The position numbers and the translations under genes were made by a program. From assembly GCF_963921235.1 (NCBI RefSeq), contig NC_086097.1, positions 8,556,001 through 8,620,000 on the forward strand: a stretch of DNA of 64,000 nt, given 5' to 3'. The notes beneath the pieces were generated by a model. That model had not been told where the DNA came from. It worked only from the letters and a program-made list of their open reading frames with translations, and made no database searches. Positions 1,768 through 62,415 of the stretch are shown one piece after another; within the stretch, counting starts at the first letter, position 1; each line of letters starts with the position of its first letter. The stretch comes from Mobula hypostoma. Lineage: Eukaryota.

Positions 1768-1955
1768 GTGGTGTTGTGGCATCCACACTGGACTTTGGGG
1801 TGAGTGGTTCTGGATTCAAAAGCGACAGGCTCCCTGCACGCTTCCCATCCATGCTAGATTGAGTGTCGAGCTAGCAACTCGGACTCACAAAACAGACAAC
1901 TGCTAAAGGAACAGCATGGCTTCTGCCCGATTCGCCAATAGGCATGGATTAAATT
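1768..1955 (+). mobile_element. short tRNA-head SINE with RTE-derived body
   Basis: A/B-box-like head, then GAGTGTCGAGCTAGCAACTC (RTE 5'UTR-like motif). Homologous to 9520-9700 and 60828-60960. Confidence 0.6.
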
Positions 1956-9519: not shown

Positions 9520-9700
9520 CACAGTCAACAGGAATTCAAGACAAGTGGTCCCTGGTTCGAAAACGGCCGGCTCCTTGCATGCTTTCGATCCGTGCTCAGT
9601 TGAACACTGAGCCAGCAGCCCAGCCTCATAAAAAACAGACAAATGCTGGAGAAATGGGAGGTCGTCACTCAATACGCCACAAGGCGCGGAGAGGAACAAC
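9520..9700 (+). mobile_element. short tRNA/RTE SINE
   Basis: B box GGTTCGAAAAC, body homologous to 1768-1955, RTE-like tail CGCCACAAGGCGCGGAGAGGAAC. Confidence 0.6.
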
Positions 9701-36847: not shown

Positions 36848-39800
36848 TTATAACCATATAACAATTACAGCACGGAAACAGGCCATCTCGGCCCTTCTAG
36901 TCCATGCCAAACTCTTACTCTCACCTAGTCCAACTGACCTGCACTCAGCTCATAACTCTCCATTCCTTTCCTGTCCATATACCTATCCAATTTAACTTTA
37001 AACGACAACATCGAACCTGCCTCAACCACTTCTGCTGGACGCTCGTTCCACACAGCCACCACTCTCTGAGTAAAGAAGTTCCCCCTCATGTTACAGCTAA
37101 ACTTTTGCCCCTTAACTCTCAACTCATGTCCTCTTGTTTGAATCTCCCCCACTCTCAATGGAAAAAGCCTATCCATGTCAACTCTATCTATCCCCCTCAA
37201 AATTTTAAATACCTCTATCAAGTTCCCCCTCAACCTTCTACGCTCCAAAGAATAAAGACCTAACTTGTTCAACCTTTCTCTGTAACTTAGGAGATGAAAC
37301 CCAGGTAACATTCTAGTAAATCTTCTCTGTACTCTCTCTATTTTGTTAACATCTTTCCTATAATTCGTTGACCAGAACTGTACACAATACTCCAAATTTG
37401 GCCTTACCAATGCCTTGTATAATTTCAACATTACATCCCAACTCTTATACTCAATGCTCTGATTTATAAAGGCCAGCATAACAAAAGCTATCTTCAGCAC
37501 CCTATCCACATGAGATTCCACCTTCAGGGAACTATGCATCATTATTCCAAGATCCCTCTGTTCTACTGCATTCTTTTATGCCCTACCATTTGCCATGTAT
37601 GTCCTATTTTGATTAGTCCTACCAAAATGTAGCACTTCACATTTATCAGCATTAAACTCCATCTGCCATCTTTCAGCCCACTCTTCTAACTGGCCTAAAT
37701 CCCTCTGCAAGCTTTGAAAACCTACTTCATTATCCACATCTCCACCTATCTTAGTATCATCTGCATACTTACCACCCCATCATCCAGGTCATTAATATAT
37801 ATGACAAACAACATTGGACCCCATACAGAACCTTGAGGCACACCACTAGATAGCGGTCTCCAATCTGACAAACAGTTATCCACCGCCACTCTCTGGTGTC
37901 TCCCATCCAGCCACTGCTGAATCCATTTTACTACTTCAATATTAATACCTAACGATTGAACCTTCCTAACTAACCTTCCATGTGGAATCTTTTCAAAGGT
38001 CTTACTGAAGTCCATATAGACAACATCCATCACTTTACCCTTGTCAACTTTCCTCGTAACCTCTTCAAAAAATTCAATAAGATTTGTCAAACGTGACCTT
38101 CCACGCACAAATCCATGTTGACTGTTCCTAGTTAGACCCTGTCTATCCAGATAATTATATATACCTCTAAGAATACTTTCCATCAATTTACCCACCACTG
38201 ACGTCAAACTCACAGGCTGATAATTGCTAGGTTTACTCTTAGAACCCTTTTTAAACGATGGAACAACATGAGCAATACGCCAAACCACTGGCACCATCCT
38301 GTCTCTAATGACATTTGAAATATTTCTGCCAGAGCCCCTGCTATTTCCACACTAACTTACCTCAAGGTCCTAGGGAATATCCTGTCAGCACCCGGAGACT
38401 TATCCACTTTTATATTCCTTAAAAGCTCCAGTACTTCCTCTTCTTTAATCATCATAGTTTCTATAACTACCCTACTTGTTTCCCTTACCTTACACAATTC
38501 AATATCCTGAAGAAAATATTGAAGAAAAGAAATTGTCCAAAATCTCCTCCATCTCTTTTGGCTCCGCACATAGCCGTCCACTCTGATTCTCTAAGGGACT
38601 AATTTTATCCCTTACTATCCTTTTGCTATTAATATAACTGTATAAACCCTTTGGATTCATTTTCACCTGACTTACCAAAGCAACCTCATATCTTCTTTTA
38701 GCTTTTCTAATTTCTTTCTTAAGATTCTTCTTACATTCTTTATATTCCTCGAGCACATCATTTACTCCAAGCTGCCTATATTTATTGTAGATCTCTCTCT
38801 TTTTCTGAACAAAGTTCCAATATCCCTTGAAAGCCATGCCTCTCTCAAACTTTTAATCTTTCCTTTAAACCTAACAGGAACATAAAGATTCTGTACTCTT
38901 AATATTTCACCTTTAAATGACCTCAATTTCTCTATTACATCCTTCCCATAAAACAAATTGTCCCAATCCACTCCTTCTAAATCCTTTCGCATCTCCTCAA
39001 AGTTAGCCTTTCTCCAATCAAAAATCTCAACCCTGGGTCCAGTCCTATCCTTCTCCATAATTATATTGAAACTAATGGCATTGTGAACACTGGACCCGAA
39101 GTGCTCCCCAACACATACCTCCGTCACCTGCCCTATCTCATTCCCTAACAGGAGATCCAACACTGCCCCTTCTCTATCTGGTACCTCTATGTATTGCTGC
39201 AAAAAACTATCTTCCACACGTTTTACAAACTCCTAACCATCCAGTCCTTTTACAGAATGGGTTTCCCAGTCTATGTGTGGAAAATTAAAATCTCCCACAA
39301 TCACAACCTCGTGCTTACGACAAAAATCTGCGATCTCCTTACAAATTTGCTCCTCCAATTTTCGCTCCCCATTAGGTGGTCTATAATACACCCCTATAAA
39401 CGTTACTGCACCTTTCCCATTCCTCAATTCCACCCAAGTAGCCTCCCTAGACAAGTCCGCTAATCTATCCTGCCAAAGCACCGCTGTAATATTGTCTCTG
39501 ACAAGCAATGCAACACCTCCCCCTCTTGTCCCTCTGATTCTACTACACCTGAAGCAACAAAATCCAGGAGTATTTAGTTGCCAATCACACCCCTCCTGCA
39601 ACCATGTTTCACTAATAGCTACAACAACATATTTCCAGGTATCAATCCATGCTCTAAGCTCACCCACCTTTCTTACAATGCTTCTAGAATTAAAATAGAT
39701 GCATTTAAGAAACTCTCCACCTCTTACTCTCTGTTTATCCCTAATGGTGCAAACAACTTTGTTTATCTTTTTCTTCCTTCTCCCCTATATCTTTGGTCTG

Positions 39801-41312
39801 AGTGCTCCCGTTCTCTGTCCCCTGCCTATCCTCCCTTACACACTGTCTACTAGCTTTCTCTATTTGTGAACTAACCTCCTCTCTCCTAGTCTCTTCAATT
39901 TGATTTCCACCCTCCAACCATTCTAGTTTAAAGTCTCCCCAGTAGCCTTTGCAAATCTCCCCACCAGGATATTGGTCCCCCTAGGATCCAAGTGCAACCC
40001 GTCCTTTTTGTACAGGTCACACCTGCGCCAAAAGCAGTCCCAATGATCCAGAAACTTGAATCCCTGACCCCTGCTCCGATCCCTCAGCCACACATTTATC
40101 TTCCACCTCATTGCATTCCTACTCTCACTGTCGCGTGGCACAGGCAGTAATCCCAAGATTACTACCTTTGCGGTCCTTCTTCTCAACTCCCCACCTAACT
40201 CCCTATATTCTCCTTTCAGGACCTCTTCTCTTTTCCCACCTATGTCATTGGTACCTATATGTACCACGACCTCTGGCTCCTCACCCTCCCACTTCAGGAT
40301 ATCTTGGACACAATCAGATACATCCCGGACCCTGGCACCAGGGAGGCAAACTACCATCCGGGTCTCCTGACTGCGTCCACAGAATCATCTATCTGACCCC
40401 CTAACTATCGAGTCCCCTATTACTACTGCCCTCCTCTTCCTTTCCCTACCCTTCTGAGCTACAGGGCCAGACTCTGTGCTGGAGGCATGGCCACTGTCAC
40501 TTCCTCCGGGTAAGCTGTCCCCCCTAACAGTACTCAAACAGGAGTACTTATTGTCAAAGGGCACAGCCACCGGGGTACTCTCTATTACCTGACTCTTCCC
40601 CTTCCTCCTCCTAACCGTGACCGACTTGTCTGTCTCCCGTGGCCCCGGTGTGACCACCTGCCTGTAACTCCTCTCTATCAACTCCTCACTCTCCCTGACC
40701 GGACGAAGGTCATCGAGCTGCAGCTTCAGTTCCCTAACGTGGTCCCTTAGGAGCTGCAGCTCGGCGCACCTGGCGCAGATGTGGACGTCCAGGAGGCTAG
40801 GAGACTCCAGGACCTCCCACAACTGATACCAAGAACAGCAAGCTGCCCTCACACTCATACTTACCCCTTTCCTCAAATAACAGGGAAAATTGAAAACCAA
40901 ACCTTCTTTGCCTCGCCTATTTCTGCCTAAGCCCGTTGAGCCAAAGCCCTTAAGCATTCACTCTGCTCCCGGCTCACTCCGCTGCCTGCTGTATACGGCT
41001 GTGTTCCTTTTAAATCTTCCGCGCTTCACTGCCCGACGTCACACACCTGCGCAGTCCCGCCTCTCTTAACTCCAATGAGAAAAAGAAAAAATCAAAATGG
41101 CTTCCGCTGCACTCCCGCTCTGATTCTCAGACTTCCTTCTCCGAATTAGACCCGAATCAGGATTTCTGACCTTTTTAAATCTTCTGCGCTTCATTGCCTG
41201 ATGTCACATGCCTGTGCAGTCCCGCCTCTCTTAACTCCGATGAGAAAAAGAAAAAATCAAAATGGCTTCTGCCGTCCTCCTGCTCCGATTCTCAGACTTC
41301 CTTCTCCGAATT
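36848..41312 (-). mobile_element. full-length CR1 LINE (5' UTR, ORF1 zinc finger/zipper/SGNH esterase, ORF2 APE-RT), inactivated by frameshifts
   Basis: ORF1 has HICARCAELQLL, VIGDS, HIGTND and DGLHL. ORF2 has AISETWL, GDFNFP, LDLLL, HGFVRGRS and SGVPQGS. The 5' UTR is CpG-rich. Confidence 0.95.
41006..41312 (-). promoter_or_regulatory. tandem ~165-bp monomers in the CR1 5' UTR (putative internal promoter)
   Basis: Units 41006-41147 and 41170-41312 each contain CAAAATGGC (YY1-like). The first also has GACGTCA (CRE-like) and TGCGCA. Confidence 0.55.
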
Positions 41313-48680: not shown

Positions 48681-48920
48681 CACAAAGTGTGGACTCTCTG
48701 ACTTAGGGAGAAAAATTAAGAAGGGTCTATATTTTTCAAATCTATAGTTCTAAAGGTGGTGCAAGAACTGCACATGGGTCTATCTGTTCACAAGTTGTTG
48801 AATAGAAGGGCATGTTGATAGAGTGGTAGCAACATTTATTGGCTCCCAAAAGATATTGAAAGCATAGACTAGAAATGCAGGAAACTGTGGAATATGTACA
48901 GAATACCGGTTGGGGGAGCA

Positions 48921-49440
48921 TGAAGTGCCCACGGAGGGGGTAGCACGTCTGGTGAAGGGGCTTGTTGTGTCCATTCTGGGGCCACTCACTCATGTTTGTT
49001 TCCGACTGGACAGTCAGCTCCCACCCATGCTTGAAGCAGCTGTTAGCATATAACAGTGGCCACACCTTGGTATACCACTTCGATAGTTGAGCTAAAGCAG
49101 GTGAGGGTAACTGGCGAGCCTCATACCCCAGTGTCATAGGGGCACAGCAGTGCTAGTATGTGAAATCAGCTCTGGTGGACGGGGTGAATGAGATCTAGAG
49201 TGAGATTTAACGGCCAGGAAGGTGGTACCGCAATGCTTTCTGGAGAGTGAAGGGCAGGACAAGGCACAGGTGACGGTCGTCCACTGCAACCAAGGAAGAT
49301 CCCAGTTTCTGATGCTTGTTCATACCACTGGACCTGGACTTTTGAGGTTGAGAATGGAACTGCTCCTGTGCAACAGCTTTTCCACTTAAACATTCTCCTG
49401 CACAGATTTCCTGTCATTGTCGGACATGATGGACAACCAG
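48921..49440 (+). mobile_element. non-coding RTE-related retroposon, family B (older relative) with HDV-like relic
   Basis: Colinear with 60306-61002 (GGAGGGG..GCAC.TCTGGTG, GGCCACAC, TAAA.CAGGTGAGGGTA, CTAG.ATGTGAA, AACGG.CA.GAAGG.GGT, CCACTGGA, CACTTAAA). Confidence 0.65.
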
Positions 49441-50304
49441 CACTGGTTGGAGGCAGGCTAAGATTCTATGTCCATTTCTGCATACCACACTTTGGTAAGA
49501 TGTGAAAAGGATCAAGAGAAGATTTAATAGAATGGTTTCAGGGTGTGGAATTTGATTTTAGAAATTGAAGTTGATGTTCTTGGAGTTAAAATGGTATTTC
49601 AGATAAGATTTAATAGAGATTTATAATATATTATTTTTAGGTAGTCTAAAAATAGGGAAGATATTCTCTCTGGCTGATGGTTCAAGGTCAGACCCATTGA
49701 TTTAAAAATTTGTGTGAAAAGTCACAAAGGAAAGAATAGATGAGATTCTTTAATCCATGAGCAACAGGTTTGATGGAAATAAAGACAAGCAAAGTCTTCA
49801 GAAGTGAATTTATAGATTTTCAAAGAGACTAATTTGCAGCATTACATGAGGGTAATGAGAATGCTGAGGTGTTCTGTGCAGAAACAGTCTGTAATTCTAT
49901 TGAATTAAATAATTCAACTTCCTATCAGCTCTATCCTGTCAGTAGCTCACTATTCAACACAAGAAATGCTGCATTACAAAGTAGGAACTCATTCTTTACC
50001 AACCTCTATAATTTCATAGAACTGCTTTGTGAAAATGTCGCCAATGGTATCAAGTACATCATTTGAACAGCTCATTATAACATTGTGACAAAATCAATGC
50101 TAACAGCATGGATCTGTAATCAGTTTTATCAAAAGTGCAACTTGAACACTCAAGATAAGAGTGCATCTCCTAGCTTTATTCTTGTAAGTGCCACAATTCA
50201 AGCTATCCCAACCTTTTGGTATCTATTATATCTAATCTCAAGTAATGACTCTGGACTACAATGAGAATCTTTGTCAGTGATCTTATAAAATCACCTTTTA
50301 TCTC

Positions 50305-58015: not shown

Positions 58016-60305
58016 CTCAATATTAATTCAACTTTGCATGTTGGACTCATGAACTGTTTCAAACTTAAGAAGTCACCATTTATATTTATGTATCCCTTCA
58101 GTAGCCAAATGAAAAATCTTCCTCATTATTCAGGTCAAATGGTGTCAGTTATTGCACTGTTAACACCTTATTTCAGAACCAGCTCCTCAGAGCCCTGTGA
58201 ATCAAAGATCTTGAAGTTGAAATAATTGTTCTCTGATTTATTTATGACATAATGGAGAGCTGTTGCAAAGTTTAACAAAGAAATCTCATTATATTCGCTG
58301 ATCCAGTGCTTAAACCCAGAATCTCAGAGGGCAGCCACTGTTGTTAAGGAAGCTTATATTAAAATCCTAGATGGCACATGCAGTCATTTCAGATAAAAAG
58401 TTCAACTTTATTATCATTTCAACCATAAACATGTATTCCCCCAAAAAGAAACAATGATCCTCCAGACCAAAGTGCACAACACAGTTCATATAACTCACAC
58501 GTAACAGATAAGTAATATTACCACAAATATATTAACAGATAATAAAGTGCATTTACAATACTAGCTAAAACGCTAATGGTATAACACTACTGGCGCTACA
58601 TATATGATGAGAACTGGGTGGTGGTCATGTACATTTCTAAGCTCCACGTACATATCCAAGAGCCTCTTAATCTGACCATGTCACACACTCACCACTTTCT
58701 GCATAAAAAACTTACCCCTGACATCTCCTCTGTACCTACTTCCAAGCACCTTAAAACTGTGGCCTCTCATGTTAGCCATTTCAGCCCTGGGAAAAAGCCT
58801 CTGACTATCCACACAATTAATGCCTCTCATCATCTTATACACCTCTATCAGGTCACTTCTCATCCTCCGTTGCTTCAAGGAGAAAAGGCCAAATTCTCTC
58901 AACTTATTCTCATACGGCTGCTCCCCAATCCAGGCAATGTACTTTTAAATCTCCTCTGCACTCTTTTTATAGTTTCCACATCCTTCCTATAGTGAGGTGA
59001 CCAGAACTGAGTGAGCATACTACTCCAAGTGGGGTCTGGCCAGGGTCCTATATAGCTGTAACATTATTTCTTGGCTCTTGAACTCATTCCCACGGTTGAT
59101 GAAGGCCAATTCACAGTATGCCTTATTAACCACACAGTCAACCTGCCCAGCAGCTTTGAGTGTCCTATGGACTCGAACCCCTAGATCCCTCTGATCCTCC
59201 ACACTGCTGAGTCTTACAATTAATACTATAGCCTGTCATTATATTTGACCTACCAAAATGAACCACCTCACACTTATCTAGGTTGAATTCCATCTGCCAC
59301 TTTTCAGCCCAGTTTTGCATCCTATCAATGTCCCGCTGTAACCTGTGACAGCCCTCCACACTATCCACAACACCCCCAACTTTTATGTCATCAGGAAATT
59401 TACTAATCCATCTCTCCGCTTCCTTTTCCAGGTCATTTATAAAAATCACGAAGGGTAGGGTCCCAGAACAGATCCCTGAGGCACACCACTGGTGACCGAC
59501 CTCCATGCAGAATATGACCCATCCACACTTTGCCTTCTGTGGGCAAGCCAATTCTGGATCCACAAGGCAAGATCCCCTTGGATCCCATGCCTCCTTACTT
59601 TCTCAATAAGCCTTGCATGGAGTACCTTACCAAATGCCTTGCTGAAATCCATATACACTACATCTACTGCTCTACCTTCATCAGTGTGTTTAGTCACATC
59701 CTCAAAAAATTCAATCAGGCTCGTATGGCATGACCTGCCCTAGGCAAAGCCATACTGACTATCCCTAATCAGATTATGTCTTTTCAAATGCTCATAAAAC
59801 CTGCCTCTTACAATCTTTTCAAAAAACTTGCCCACCACTGAAGTCAGACTCACCAGTCTATAATTTTCTGGGTTATCTCTATTCTCTTTCTTGAACAGGG
59901 CAACAACATTGGAAACCCTCCAATCCTCCGGTACTTCTCCTGTCTCTATTGATGATGCAAAGATCATCACCAGAGGCTCAGCAATTTCTTCCCTTGCTTC
60001 CCACAGTAGCCTGGGGTATATCTTGTCTGGTCCTGGTGACTTATCCAACTTGATGCTTTCTAAAAGCTCCAGCACATCCTCCTTCTTAATGTTTATATGC
60101 TCAAGTTTTTCACTCCACTGTAAGTCATCCGTACAATCATCAAGATCCTTTTCCGTAGTGAATACTGAAGAAAAGTATTCATTAAGTACCTCCGCTACCT
60201 CCTCTGGTTCCATACACACTATTCCCACTTTCACACTTAATCTCATGTCTTATCCTCTTGCTCTTCACATACTTGTAGAATGCCTTGGGATTTTCCTTAA
60301 TCCTG

Positions 60306-61002
60306 TAGGGGTGTATGGGGTGTCAGGGAGGGGTGCACCTCTGGTGGGGGAACATGTCGCGTCCTTTTCTAGGCGGTTAGTCCACCTTTGGTCCCCACCT
60401 GGCAGTCAGTTCTCACCTGTGGCTCCTCGTAGCTGTTTGCATGCGTCAGCGGCCACACTCCGGGCAACGGCTCCAACAAACCGGTTAAACCAGGTGAGGG
60501 TAGCCGACGGGTCTCAAACCCTCAGTGAGATAGGGAGTTGTCTATCCTAGCATGTGAAGACAGACTCCGGCAGACTGAGCGGACGAGACCAATGGAAGGT
60601 TCAACGGTCAAGAAGGCGGTCTCTGCAAGCGTCGTGGAACGTGTGGAGCACGACAAGACACAGAAGATGTCCTGGTCATCCACTGCGCCTAGTCCCATCT
60701 TCAGGCATCTCAACTCTTGTCTTGCCACTGGATCCAGATGGGAATTGGGAAGAGAGAGCTGACGCTGTGCAACTCTCCATCACTTAAATCCAAAACAAGC
60801 GTTCGTCTCAACAGCATAAATCACCATCTGGAGGCAAGTGGCTTCAGCGCTGGACTTCAGGGTGAGTGGTCCCGAGTTCGAATCCAGCCGGCTCCCTTGC
60901 ATGCTTTCCATCCGTGCTGGGTTAAGCATTGAGCTAGCAACTCAACCTCGTAAAAAAAAAGTACTAATGGGGTTGAAGTCTTCATCGATGACTATGGATG
61001 AA
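60306..61002 (+). mobile_element. non-coding RTE-related retroposon, family B, full length
   Basis: 11-bp TSD CCTTAATCCTG at 60295-60305 and 61003-61013. Contains a nested tRNA/RTE SINE at about 60828-60960. Confidence 0.85.
60308..60500 (+). ncRNA. HDV-like ribozyme fold at the 5' end of family B (C75-equivalent is T in this copy)
   Basis: P1 GGGGTGT(60308-60314 or 60317-60323)/ACACTCC(60455-60461); P2 CTCACCTG(60412-60419)/CAGGTGAG(60491-60498); P3 GGC(60421-60423)/GCC(60452-60454); L3 TCCTCGT; GGGCAAC(60462-60468); P4 CGG/CCG; J4/2 G-T-T-A-A. Confidence 0.8.
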
Positions 61003-62415
61003 CCTTAATCCTGCTCGCCAAGGCCTTCTCATGGCCCCTTCTGGTTCTCCTAATTTCATTCTTAAGTTCTTTCCTGCTAACCTGATAATTTTCTAGATCT
61101 CTATTGTTACCTAGTTTTGTGAACCTTTCGTAAGCTTTTCTATTTTTCTTGACTAGATGTTCAACTGCCTTTGTACACCACGGTTCCCGTACCCTACCAT
61201 CCTTTCCCTATGTCATTGGAATGTACGTATGCAGAATGTCACGCAAATATCCCCTGACCATTTGTCACATTTCTGATGTCCATTTCCCTGAGAACATTTG
61301 CTCTCAATTTATACTTCCTAGTTTCTGCCTGATAGATTCATATTTCCCCTTACTCCAATTAAACGCTTTCCTAACTTGTCTGTTCCTGTCCCTCTTCAGT
61401 GTTATGGTAAAAGAGATAGAATTGTGATCACTATCTCCAAAATGCTCTCCCACTGAGAGACACCTGACCAGGTTCATTTGCCAATGCAGTACCAGATCAA
61501 GTACATCCTCTCCTCTTGTAGGCTTATCTACATATAGTGTCAGGAAACCTTCCTGAACACACCTAACAAACTCCACCCCATCTAAACCCCTTGCTCAAGG
61601 GAGATGCCAATCAATATTAGGGAAATCAAAATCTCCATTTGCGACAACCCTGTTATTATTGTACCGTTGCAGAATCTGTCTCCCTATCTGCTCCTCGATG
61701 TTCCTGTTACTATTGGGCAGCCTATAAAACACACCCCGTAAAATTATTGACCCCTTCTTGTTTCTAACTTCCACCCACAGAGACTCAGTAGACAATCCCT
61801 CCATGACTTCCCCCTTTTTTGCAGCGTTTCACTATCTCTGATCAACAGTCCCACATCCCCACCTCTTTTGCTCCCCTCCCTGTCCTTTCTGAAACATCTA
61901 AAGCCTGGCACTCTAAGTAGCCATTCCTGCCCCTGAGCCATCCAAGTCCCTGTAATGGCCACCACATCATAGCTCCAAATACTGATCCACGCTCTAAGCT
62001 CATTTGCTTTGTTCATGATACTCCTTGCATTAGAATAGACACATTTCAAACCATTAGTTTGATTGCATCCCTTCTCTATCACCTGCCTATCCTCCCTCTT
62101 ACGTTGCCTACACACTTTCTCTATTTGTACCCCAAGCGCCCCCTCTCTGTCTCTTCAGTTTAGTTCCCACCCCCCAGCAATTCTAGTTTAAACTCTCCCC
62201 AATAGCCTTAGCGAATCTCCCTGCCAGGATATTGGTCCCCTTCGGATTCAAGTGCAACCCATCCTCTTTGTACAGGTCACGCCTGCCCCAAAAGAGATCA
62301 CAATGATGCAGAAATCTGAATCCCTGTCCCCTGCTCCATTCCCTCAGACATGCCTTTACCCTCCAGCTCACTCCATTCCTATACTCACTGTCGCGTGACA
62401 CAGGCAGTAGTCCTG

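Follow-up and report, generated by a model that had tools for sequence, protein, structure and literature searches.

The locus analysed here raises the question of whether a dispersed, non-coding retroposon in a chordate genome begins with a self-cleaving ribozyme of the hepatitis delta virus (HDV) type. It lies in a stretch of 64,000 nucleotides (nt) of Mobula hypostoma DNA (RefSeq assembly GCF_963921235.1, contig NC_086097.1, positions 8,556,001 to 8,620,000; hereafter the window, whose features are on the + strand unless marked otherwise), where the element occupies positions 60308–61007. A first-pass annotation of the window had proposed that this element is a ribozyme-headed retroposon and that the copy in hand is probably dead. 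Ribozyme-headed elements are already known; the novelty here is a family with an unusual L3, the loop that closes helix P3. Reading many copies together, we consider it probable that this is a real ribozyme-headed, non-autonomous retroposon of the kind without long terminal repeats (non-LTR), with predicted self-cleavage, and it is likewise probable that the first roughly 192 nt of its RNA, in each of the element's three forms, would fold as an HDV-like self-cleaving ribozyme. The argument rests mainly on a structural match that starts at the family's first base and on conservation between two families. For the family as a whole, the reading given in the annotation is largely borne out.

A genome search (3.48 Gb, 200 contigs) yielded 9,645 first-look candidates, 40 of which were scored, all of them nearly full length and 86–89% identical. 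Three forms were found: A-long measures about 702 base pairs (bp), A-short about 565 bp and B, an older sister family, about 540 bp. A-short is without a 138-nt module derived from a transfer RNA (tRNA)-related short interspersed nuclear element (SINE), and six fetched copies directly join consensus positions 518 and 657. Family B copies are about 76–78% identical to the window copy and have in common with family A the head and the final 35 nt or so; one decayed family B copy with the same ribozyme head is found in the window itself at 48912–49443. Insertion flanks and target duplications differed at each locus examined, so the family is dispersed and not site-specific in 28S ribosomal DNA (rDNA), and its dispersed copies, which carry target duplications, stop at a fixed 3′ end and are truncated to varying extents at the 5′ end, are those of a non-LTR retroposon. 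The annotation's description of the element as non-coding and dispersed was borne out by the number of candidates, by 1,218 exact matches to a 30-mer of the head and by the lack of a conserved frame. A frame of 110 codons does run from an ATG just after helix P1 (consensus A nt 8–340; for example L008:1508–1837) and is open in 12 of 30 copies; it had no Pfam match when two natural copies were searched, is not retained in family B and is probably a by-product of GC-rich sequence.

In the window copy the parts of the HDV fold are complete and in the correct order between 60308 and 60498, as the annotation had read them. The 5′ strand of P1, GGGGTGT (60308–60314), starts at G1, which is both the predicted end of the cleavage product and the 5′ terminus of the family, and it pairs with ACACTCC (60455–60461; ACACCCC in the consensus, the T at 60459 being C in other sequencing runs) through seven pairs, one of them G-T. 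J1/2 (97 nt, 60315–60411) is a rod-like hairpin with 30 bp in the consensus (60318–60407). The two strands of P2, CTCACCTG (60412–60419) and CAGGTGAG (60491–60498), form 8 bp, and GGC (60421–60423) pairs with GCC (60452–60454) to form P3. L3 (28 nt, 60424–60451) consists of TCCTCG (60424–60429), TA, a 5-bp hairpin (60432–60450) and a final G; in the consensus it starts with TCCCCG, whose CC forms P1.1 with the GG that precedes the GCAA of J1/4 (together 60462–60467). P4 (60468–60483), which in the consensus consists of 6 bp with the loop CGAC, is mismatched at 60473 and 60480 in the window copy. J4/2, GTTAAAC, follows at 60484–60490, and its second position, 60485, is the equivalent of the HDV catalytic cytosine C75.

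We then built a consensus of family A from 30 copies (702 nt; its numbering is used below), and every helix in it was perfect: P1 (1–7 with 149–155, all Watson-Crick), the J1/2 rod (nt 11–101, 30 bp), P2 (106–113 with 185–192, 8 bp), P3 (115–117 with 146–148), P1.1 (C119-G157 and C120-G156) and P4 (162–167 with 172–177, 6 bp, loop CGAC). Its L3 (118–145) reads UCCCCG, UA, a 5-bp hairpin (126–130 with 140–144) and G, its J1/4 is GCAA, and its J4/2 is G178, C179 and UAAAC, so that C179 is followed by UAA. The pairing of P1, P2 and P3 that the annotation had described is present in the consensus, which is better formed than the window copy; the head of the latter differs from it at 11 positions, among them C179U, the two P4 mismatches and a change that breaks one pair of the L3 hairpin. 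The P1 5′ strand is also present a second time: at the foot of the J1/2 rod, 9 nt further downstream, GGGGTGT recurs (60317–60323). Both families keep this repeat, and the P1 3′ strand could pair with it as well. An alternative P1 formed from this second strand (nt 10–16) satisfied the structural descriptor that we wrote for the fold, but zero examined copies start at nt 10, and P1 was assigned to nt 1–7 for that reason.

The U-C-C-N-N-G start of L3, the GG GCAAC that follows P1 in family A and the G-C-N-A-A of J4/2 match what we take to be the motifs of HDV. The annotation had claimed more, namely that L3 and GGGCAAC are identical to their counterparts in the genomic HDV ribozyme. Both strings are present in the window copy (TCCTCG in L3; GGGCAAC at 60462–60468), but TCCTCG is private to a minor lineage, the consensus having UCCCCG and the sister family UCCAAG, and J1/4 is GCAA in family A and UACA in family B. 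Because of this restriction of UCCUCG and the UACA of family B, the literal HDV identities do not appear to be ancestral features of the family. The UACA of family B also makes the J1/4 identity of family A probably convergent, as PMC3774820 argues for R2.

The 5′ ends of copies cluster at G1, as had been predicted. A target duplication of 11 bp or more was found in 16 of the 30 best copies; it ends no more than 3 nt from G1 in 14 of the 16, and at G1 or overlapping the G-run by 1–2 nt in 11 of them. These 30 copies were chosen for full length, and a second set of 20 copies was picked by an internal segment only; in the latter set 14 copies reach G1 and six are 5′-truncated (at about nt 7, 12, 29, 47, 64 and 126), none has common sequence upstream of G1, and all 20 have C at position 179. 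Contig pieces from the runs of other organisms start matching at 60307–60309. In the window copy G1 stands two nucleotides beyond an 11-bp target-site duplication, in agreement with the annotation: the duplication, CCTTAATCCTG, is found at 60295–60305 and again at 61003–61013, and the intervening TA (60306–60307) is absent from the family consensus, the letters upstream of G1 varying among copies. The duplication is real, since contigs of the flanking repeat from four public runs show the empty site, joining 60294 to 61003 with 11 letters common to both sides. Termini at G1 are compatible with cleavage 5′ of P1 and also with a transcription start.

Conservation between the families is concentrated in the head. 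The identity of the A and B consensus sequences is 98% over nt 1–40, 51% at the rod apex, 90% over nt 77–106 and 88% in the core (nt 107–192), and it falls to 78% over nt 193–300, 61% over nt 301–470 and 30% in the remainder. Families A and B agree in the U, C, C and G of the first six L3 positions, differ in the middle two (CC in A, AA in B), and have in common the P1.1 GG and the J4/2 GCUAA. Between A and B, P4 shows one compensatory exchange (G-C to C-G) and two one-sided changes, while the J1/2 rod shows two compensatory changes, four one-sided changes and zero broken pairs. We take this pattern to suggest selection on the source copies. Pairing was also scored in individual heads (40 of family A and 25 of family B) against a control in which the 3′ partner was slid; P1, P2, P3, P1.1, P4 and the L3 hairpin were paired in 76–98% of cells, compared with 19–47% when slid (n = 65 heads). 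P1 was paired in 93% of cells in the family A heads (slid control, 47%), P2 in 97% for A and 90% for B, P3 and the L3 hairpin each in 98% for A and 92% for B, and the J1/2 rod in 97% for A and 83% for B (slid, 45% and 43%). One copy, L030, was dropped from this test as a duplicate of L012; the two lie about 30 kb apart on opposite strands of contig C45 with identical flanks, and represent a segmental inverted duplication, not two insertions.

The catalytic position is C in the family and T in the window copy. It is C in 35 of 40 family A heads and 22 of 25 family B heads, the 30-mer spanning it that was counted above has only 17 exact genomic counterparts with T, and in contigs from four other runs about 99% of the depth at 60485 is C, which upholds the expectation of a consensus with the catalytic C. 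The contrast that the annotation had drawn between T at 60485 and C at 49092 of the related family B copy can be read directly from the window. With this T and a weakened P4, the window copy is very probably inactive, as the annotation had held, judging from its bases; the T itself was probably inherited and not acquired after insertion, so that the copy was probably dead from birth. Four copies (L001, L005, L006 and L024) carry both T179 and T121 (window 60485 and 60427, the latter being L3 position 4), and L004 carries T179 only, which puts the T lineage at 4–5 of 30 copies. T121 and T179 are the sole non-CpG variants that distinguish these copies, which for that reason look like one minor source lineage, and its tiny size fits strong selection for C. 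T at 60485 was rejected as a lineage marker common to all T copies: 13 of the 17 T-variant 30-mers are further copies without the change in L3, and their T seems to have arisen by independent mutation. The lineage's two C-to-T changes affect L3 position 4 and the catalytic C, which are both single-stranded in the core, and its members have few further markers in common.

Several observations weigh against a ribozyme at this position. The base of P1 is a G-C pair (G1-C155 in both consensus sequences) and not G-U; HDV and CPEB3 have a G-U wobble there, which is not universal. HDV-like ribozymes typically close P3 with a short L3 of about 7–8 nt, and the L3 of this family, at 28 nt, contains after its first 8 nt a 22-nt insertion that forms the conserved 5-bp hairpin; we know, short of an exhaustive search, of no validated HDV-like ribozyme with a hairpin inserted in L3. 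The insertion could extend P3 as a coaxial helix pointing away from the core. The pairing percentages mostly restate the consensus, because copies decay neutrally, and P1, P2 and P3 are invariant between A and B, so that they show no covariation and are uninformative either way. No HDV-type model of Rfam matched at gathering score over the whole window, and with the threshold relaxed to E up to 10 the window copy, three intact copies and the core by itself still gave none; long insertions may explain these missing matches, and the sole Rfam matches were weak microRNA and long non-coding RNA noise. The searches described below detected no long interspersed nuclear element (LINE) that has this tail or this head. 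Most troubling are the T179 copies (L001, L004, L005, L006 and L024), several independent insertions with differing flanks that all begin at G1, which means that catalysis in cis may not be strictly needed; their ends could possibly arise by trans-cleavage by sister RNAs, by editing of the cytosine after cleavage, or at a start site. Finally, the descriptor was written after the element had been viewed, with ranges fitted to it, and its relaxed form, the one met by the window copy, matched 45 of 200 dinucleotide-shuffled windows.

The last point bears on whether the resemblance arose by chance, with the GC-rich 5′ region of an ordinary retroposon happening to satisfy a permissive, post hoc descriptor; the strict form, too, matched 13 of the 200 shuffled windows. 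The strict descriptor was passed by both consensus sequences, by 11 of 30 A copies and by 1 of 30 B copies, and no match to the descriptor arose in either 20,000 shuffled versions of the head or 156,534 bases of real flanking DNA. For a match to begin exactly where a repeat family begins, the chance is about 1e-6 per position, and core residues and helices are kept across the two families, with compensatory changes. We accordingly regard coincidence as highly improbable.

A different explanation is that the head is a conserved structured RNA with another role, for instance as an internal promoter, like Pr77 in L1Tc, or as a 5′ site bound by a LINE protein, in which case its likeness to HDV would be incidental and G1 would be a transcription start. 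The lack of Rfam matches, the atypical L3 and the G1 ends of the U lineage could all be accommodated in this way, and in L1Tc the same 77 nt serve as promoter and ribozyme, according to PMC3383444. A promoter role would be compatible with a ribozyme. Two families that differ by 40–70% elsewhere keep the full HDV topology together with the catalytic C and, in L3, the U, C, C and G, which is evidence against an incidental likeness. No tRNA, 7SL, 5S or other Rfam head was found, so a canonical SINE head is missing; ARAGORN detected no tRNA in the window, the tRNA-like module being near the 3′ end and confined to A-long. A B-box-like motif of family A, GGTTAGTCC, is not retained in family B as judged by eye. 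Taken with these points, we find another role for the head unlikely, and favour the self-cleaving ribozyme.

For such a ribozyme-headed element the following cycle can be proposed. A copy lying inside any host transcript would be transcribed by read-through, and the ribozyme would cut immediately 5′ of G1, the J1/2 rod presumably holding P1 and P2 together. Since a ribozyme of the HDV type is independent of upstream sequence, cutting would be feasible at any insertion site. The 3′ tail of the freed RNA (...GATGGACGAACCTTA) would be recognised by the reverse transcriptase of a LINE and copied by target-primed reverse transcription, a process that would yield duplications of about 6–17 bp, 3′ microhomology and some 5′-truncated copies. 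The junctions that we examined have duplications of 6–17 bp, 1–5 nt of microhomology between the target and CCTTA, extra 5′ nucleotides at some copies and 5′ truncation, and these features fit target-primed reverse transcription by an endonuclease-type LINE.

In a refinement of the same interpretation, the family consists of internally deleted copies of an autonomous LINE with the same 5′ ribozyme, the short elements being its parasites. Precedents exist in the short internally deleted elements (SIDEs) of R2 and in NARTc (PMC3414825 and PMC3383444), and families A and B have a common head and a common last roughly 35 nt with little in common between. A search by BLAST with tails of 120 nt and 50 nt against the window and about 170 kb of locus flanks returned only copies of the short element and the tRNA-related SINE, and two genome-wide patterns that excluded the short element gave 11 and 3 matches, of which the 10 fetched were all variants of the short element (six of them A-short). 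The LINEs of the window had no HDV-like match with the descriptor. These negatives are limited in that the tail searches could detect only near-identical tails, among the matches listed. We regard descent from such a LINE as possible but doubtful on this evidence. A LINE does lie in the window at 36925–40957 (-), with a GDSL-esterase-type first open reading frame (ORF1) and fragments of an apurinic/apyrimidinic (AP) endonuclease and a reverse transcriptase, and its sequence does not resemble the tail of the ribozyme-headed family. Away from the ribozyme-headed element, the window contains a reverse-transcriptase fragment whose nearest Atlas cluster belongs to Chordata.

Non-LTR elements headed by ribozymes, non-autonomous ones included, are established for R2 and its SIDEs, L1Tc and NARTc, RTE and Baggins (PMC6765202). 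According to PMC3774820, R2 ribozymes have J1/2 loops of 216–498 nt and a C-to-U change abolishes cleavage, and according to PMC4908430 peripheral J1/2 domains activate or accelerate large HDV-like ribozymes. The R2, RTE and Baggins ribozymes resemble the present head in lying at the 5′ end, in having a J4/2 with a catalytic C and a J1/2 that is large and structured, and in an active-site sequence close to that of HDV; these elements encode a reverse transcriptase and, in the cases considered, have a short-loop L3, whereas the present family is non-coding with an L3 of 28 nt (PMC3774820 and PMC6765202). The R2 SIDEs of Drosophila are described in PMC3414825 as non-autonomous elements with a 5′ HDV-like ribozyme that excises them from a co-transcript and with a 3′ end recognised by the LINE protein, both of which we count as likenesses to the present family; they are specific to a site in rDNA and have a known parent, whereas the present family is dispersed, with its 6–17 bp duplications, thousands of copies and no parent found in our searches. 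For L1Tc and NARTc of Trypanosoma cruzi, PMC3185411 and PMC3383444 describe an HDV-like ribozyme that heads dispersed elements, autonomous and non-autonomous, and an RNA released by the L1Tc ribozyme (L1TcRz) from long co-transcripts, again likenesses. L1TcRz, which lies within Pr77, is by the same sources a compact 77 nt, also a promoter, and belongs to a protist; the present head, in a chordate, has about 192 nt, with the 97-nt J1/2 rod and the L3 hairpin. The SINE-like elements of Schistosoma (a hammerhead in Sm-alpha; twister variants, PMC8501958) are similar in being short, non-coding and the source of a ribozyme-processed RNA, but their ribozymes are of another class, and RNA polymerase III (Pol III) transcribes Sm-alpha from tandem copies (PMC6765202). 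With the genomic HDV ribozyme itself the present family has in common the nested double-pseudoknot order, and it differs from it in the 97-nt J1/2, the 22-nt insertion in L3, the G-C first pair of P1 and the lack of an Rfam HDV match. Among the open-access papers searched we found no HDV-like ribozyme described as heading a vertebrate SINE-like family.

We put forward, tentatively, a wider reading in which a chordate and at least four other sequenced organisms would have a superfamily of retroposons, numbering more than 10,000 copies, where the Pol III promoter head of a SINE gives way to an HDV-like ribozyme that is active and of undescribed build. The build would be that of the L3 hairpin, the 30-bp J1/2 rod and the duplicated P1 strand, to which Rfam and classical descriptors would be blind, and the U lineage would point to trans-cleavage by sister RNAs or to cytosines exposed in the core being edited from C to U once cleavage has taken place. 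Were the ribozyme active, the family would be a very abundant non-coding example from a chordate in which a ribozyme stands in for the promoter of a SINE genome-wide, the catalytic loop L3 would prove tolerant of a helix insertion, and curated models would be missing such ribozymes, making the census of animal genomes too low. The thousands of natural variants, lineages with U at the catalytic position included, are a potential ready-made mutational series.

Downstream of the head, the window copy consists of a non-coding body (60499–60819), common to A-short and more loosely to family B; a module derived from the tRNA-related SINE together with an A-run (60820–60960, bounds approximate), absent from A-short and similar to window positions 1776–1880 and 9531–9635; and the 3′ tail (60961–61007), whose last 5 nt, the final CCTTA of the element consensus, overlap the target duplication as microhomology. 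Copies of the tRNA-related SINE itself stand at 1776–1892 and 9531–9635, with A-box-like and B-box-like motifs recognised by eye in their tRNA-like part, and it is a 138-nt piece of this SINE that is inside A-long (window about 60820–60960). In one copy, L034, the family B tail unit ACGATGGA(C/T)A is tandemly duplicated, which hints at a short 3′ repeat unit, as in some LINE tails. Words of the stretch analysed were found in runs under 16 coded organism labels from 13 studies, in shares of 0.06–0.25 and never half or more, which indicates repeat families common to other organisms. The element sits antisense within another repeat (window 60250–60305 and 61003–61050; ORFs at 59740–60246 (-) and 61744–62115 (-)), whose summed contig depth in other runs is 10–100 times that of the ribozyme-headed element and whose weak match to an endonuclease family (E 0.0016, below the Pfam cut-off) suggests a LINE.

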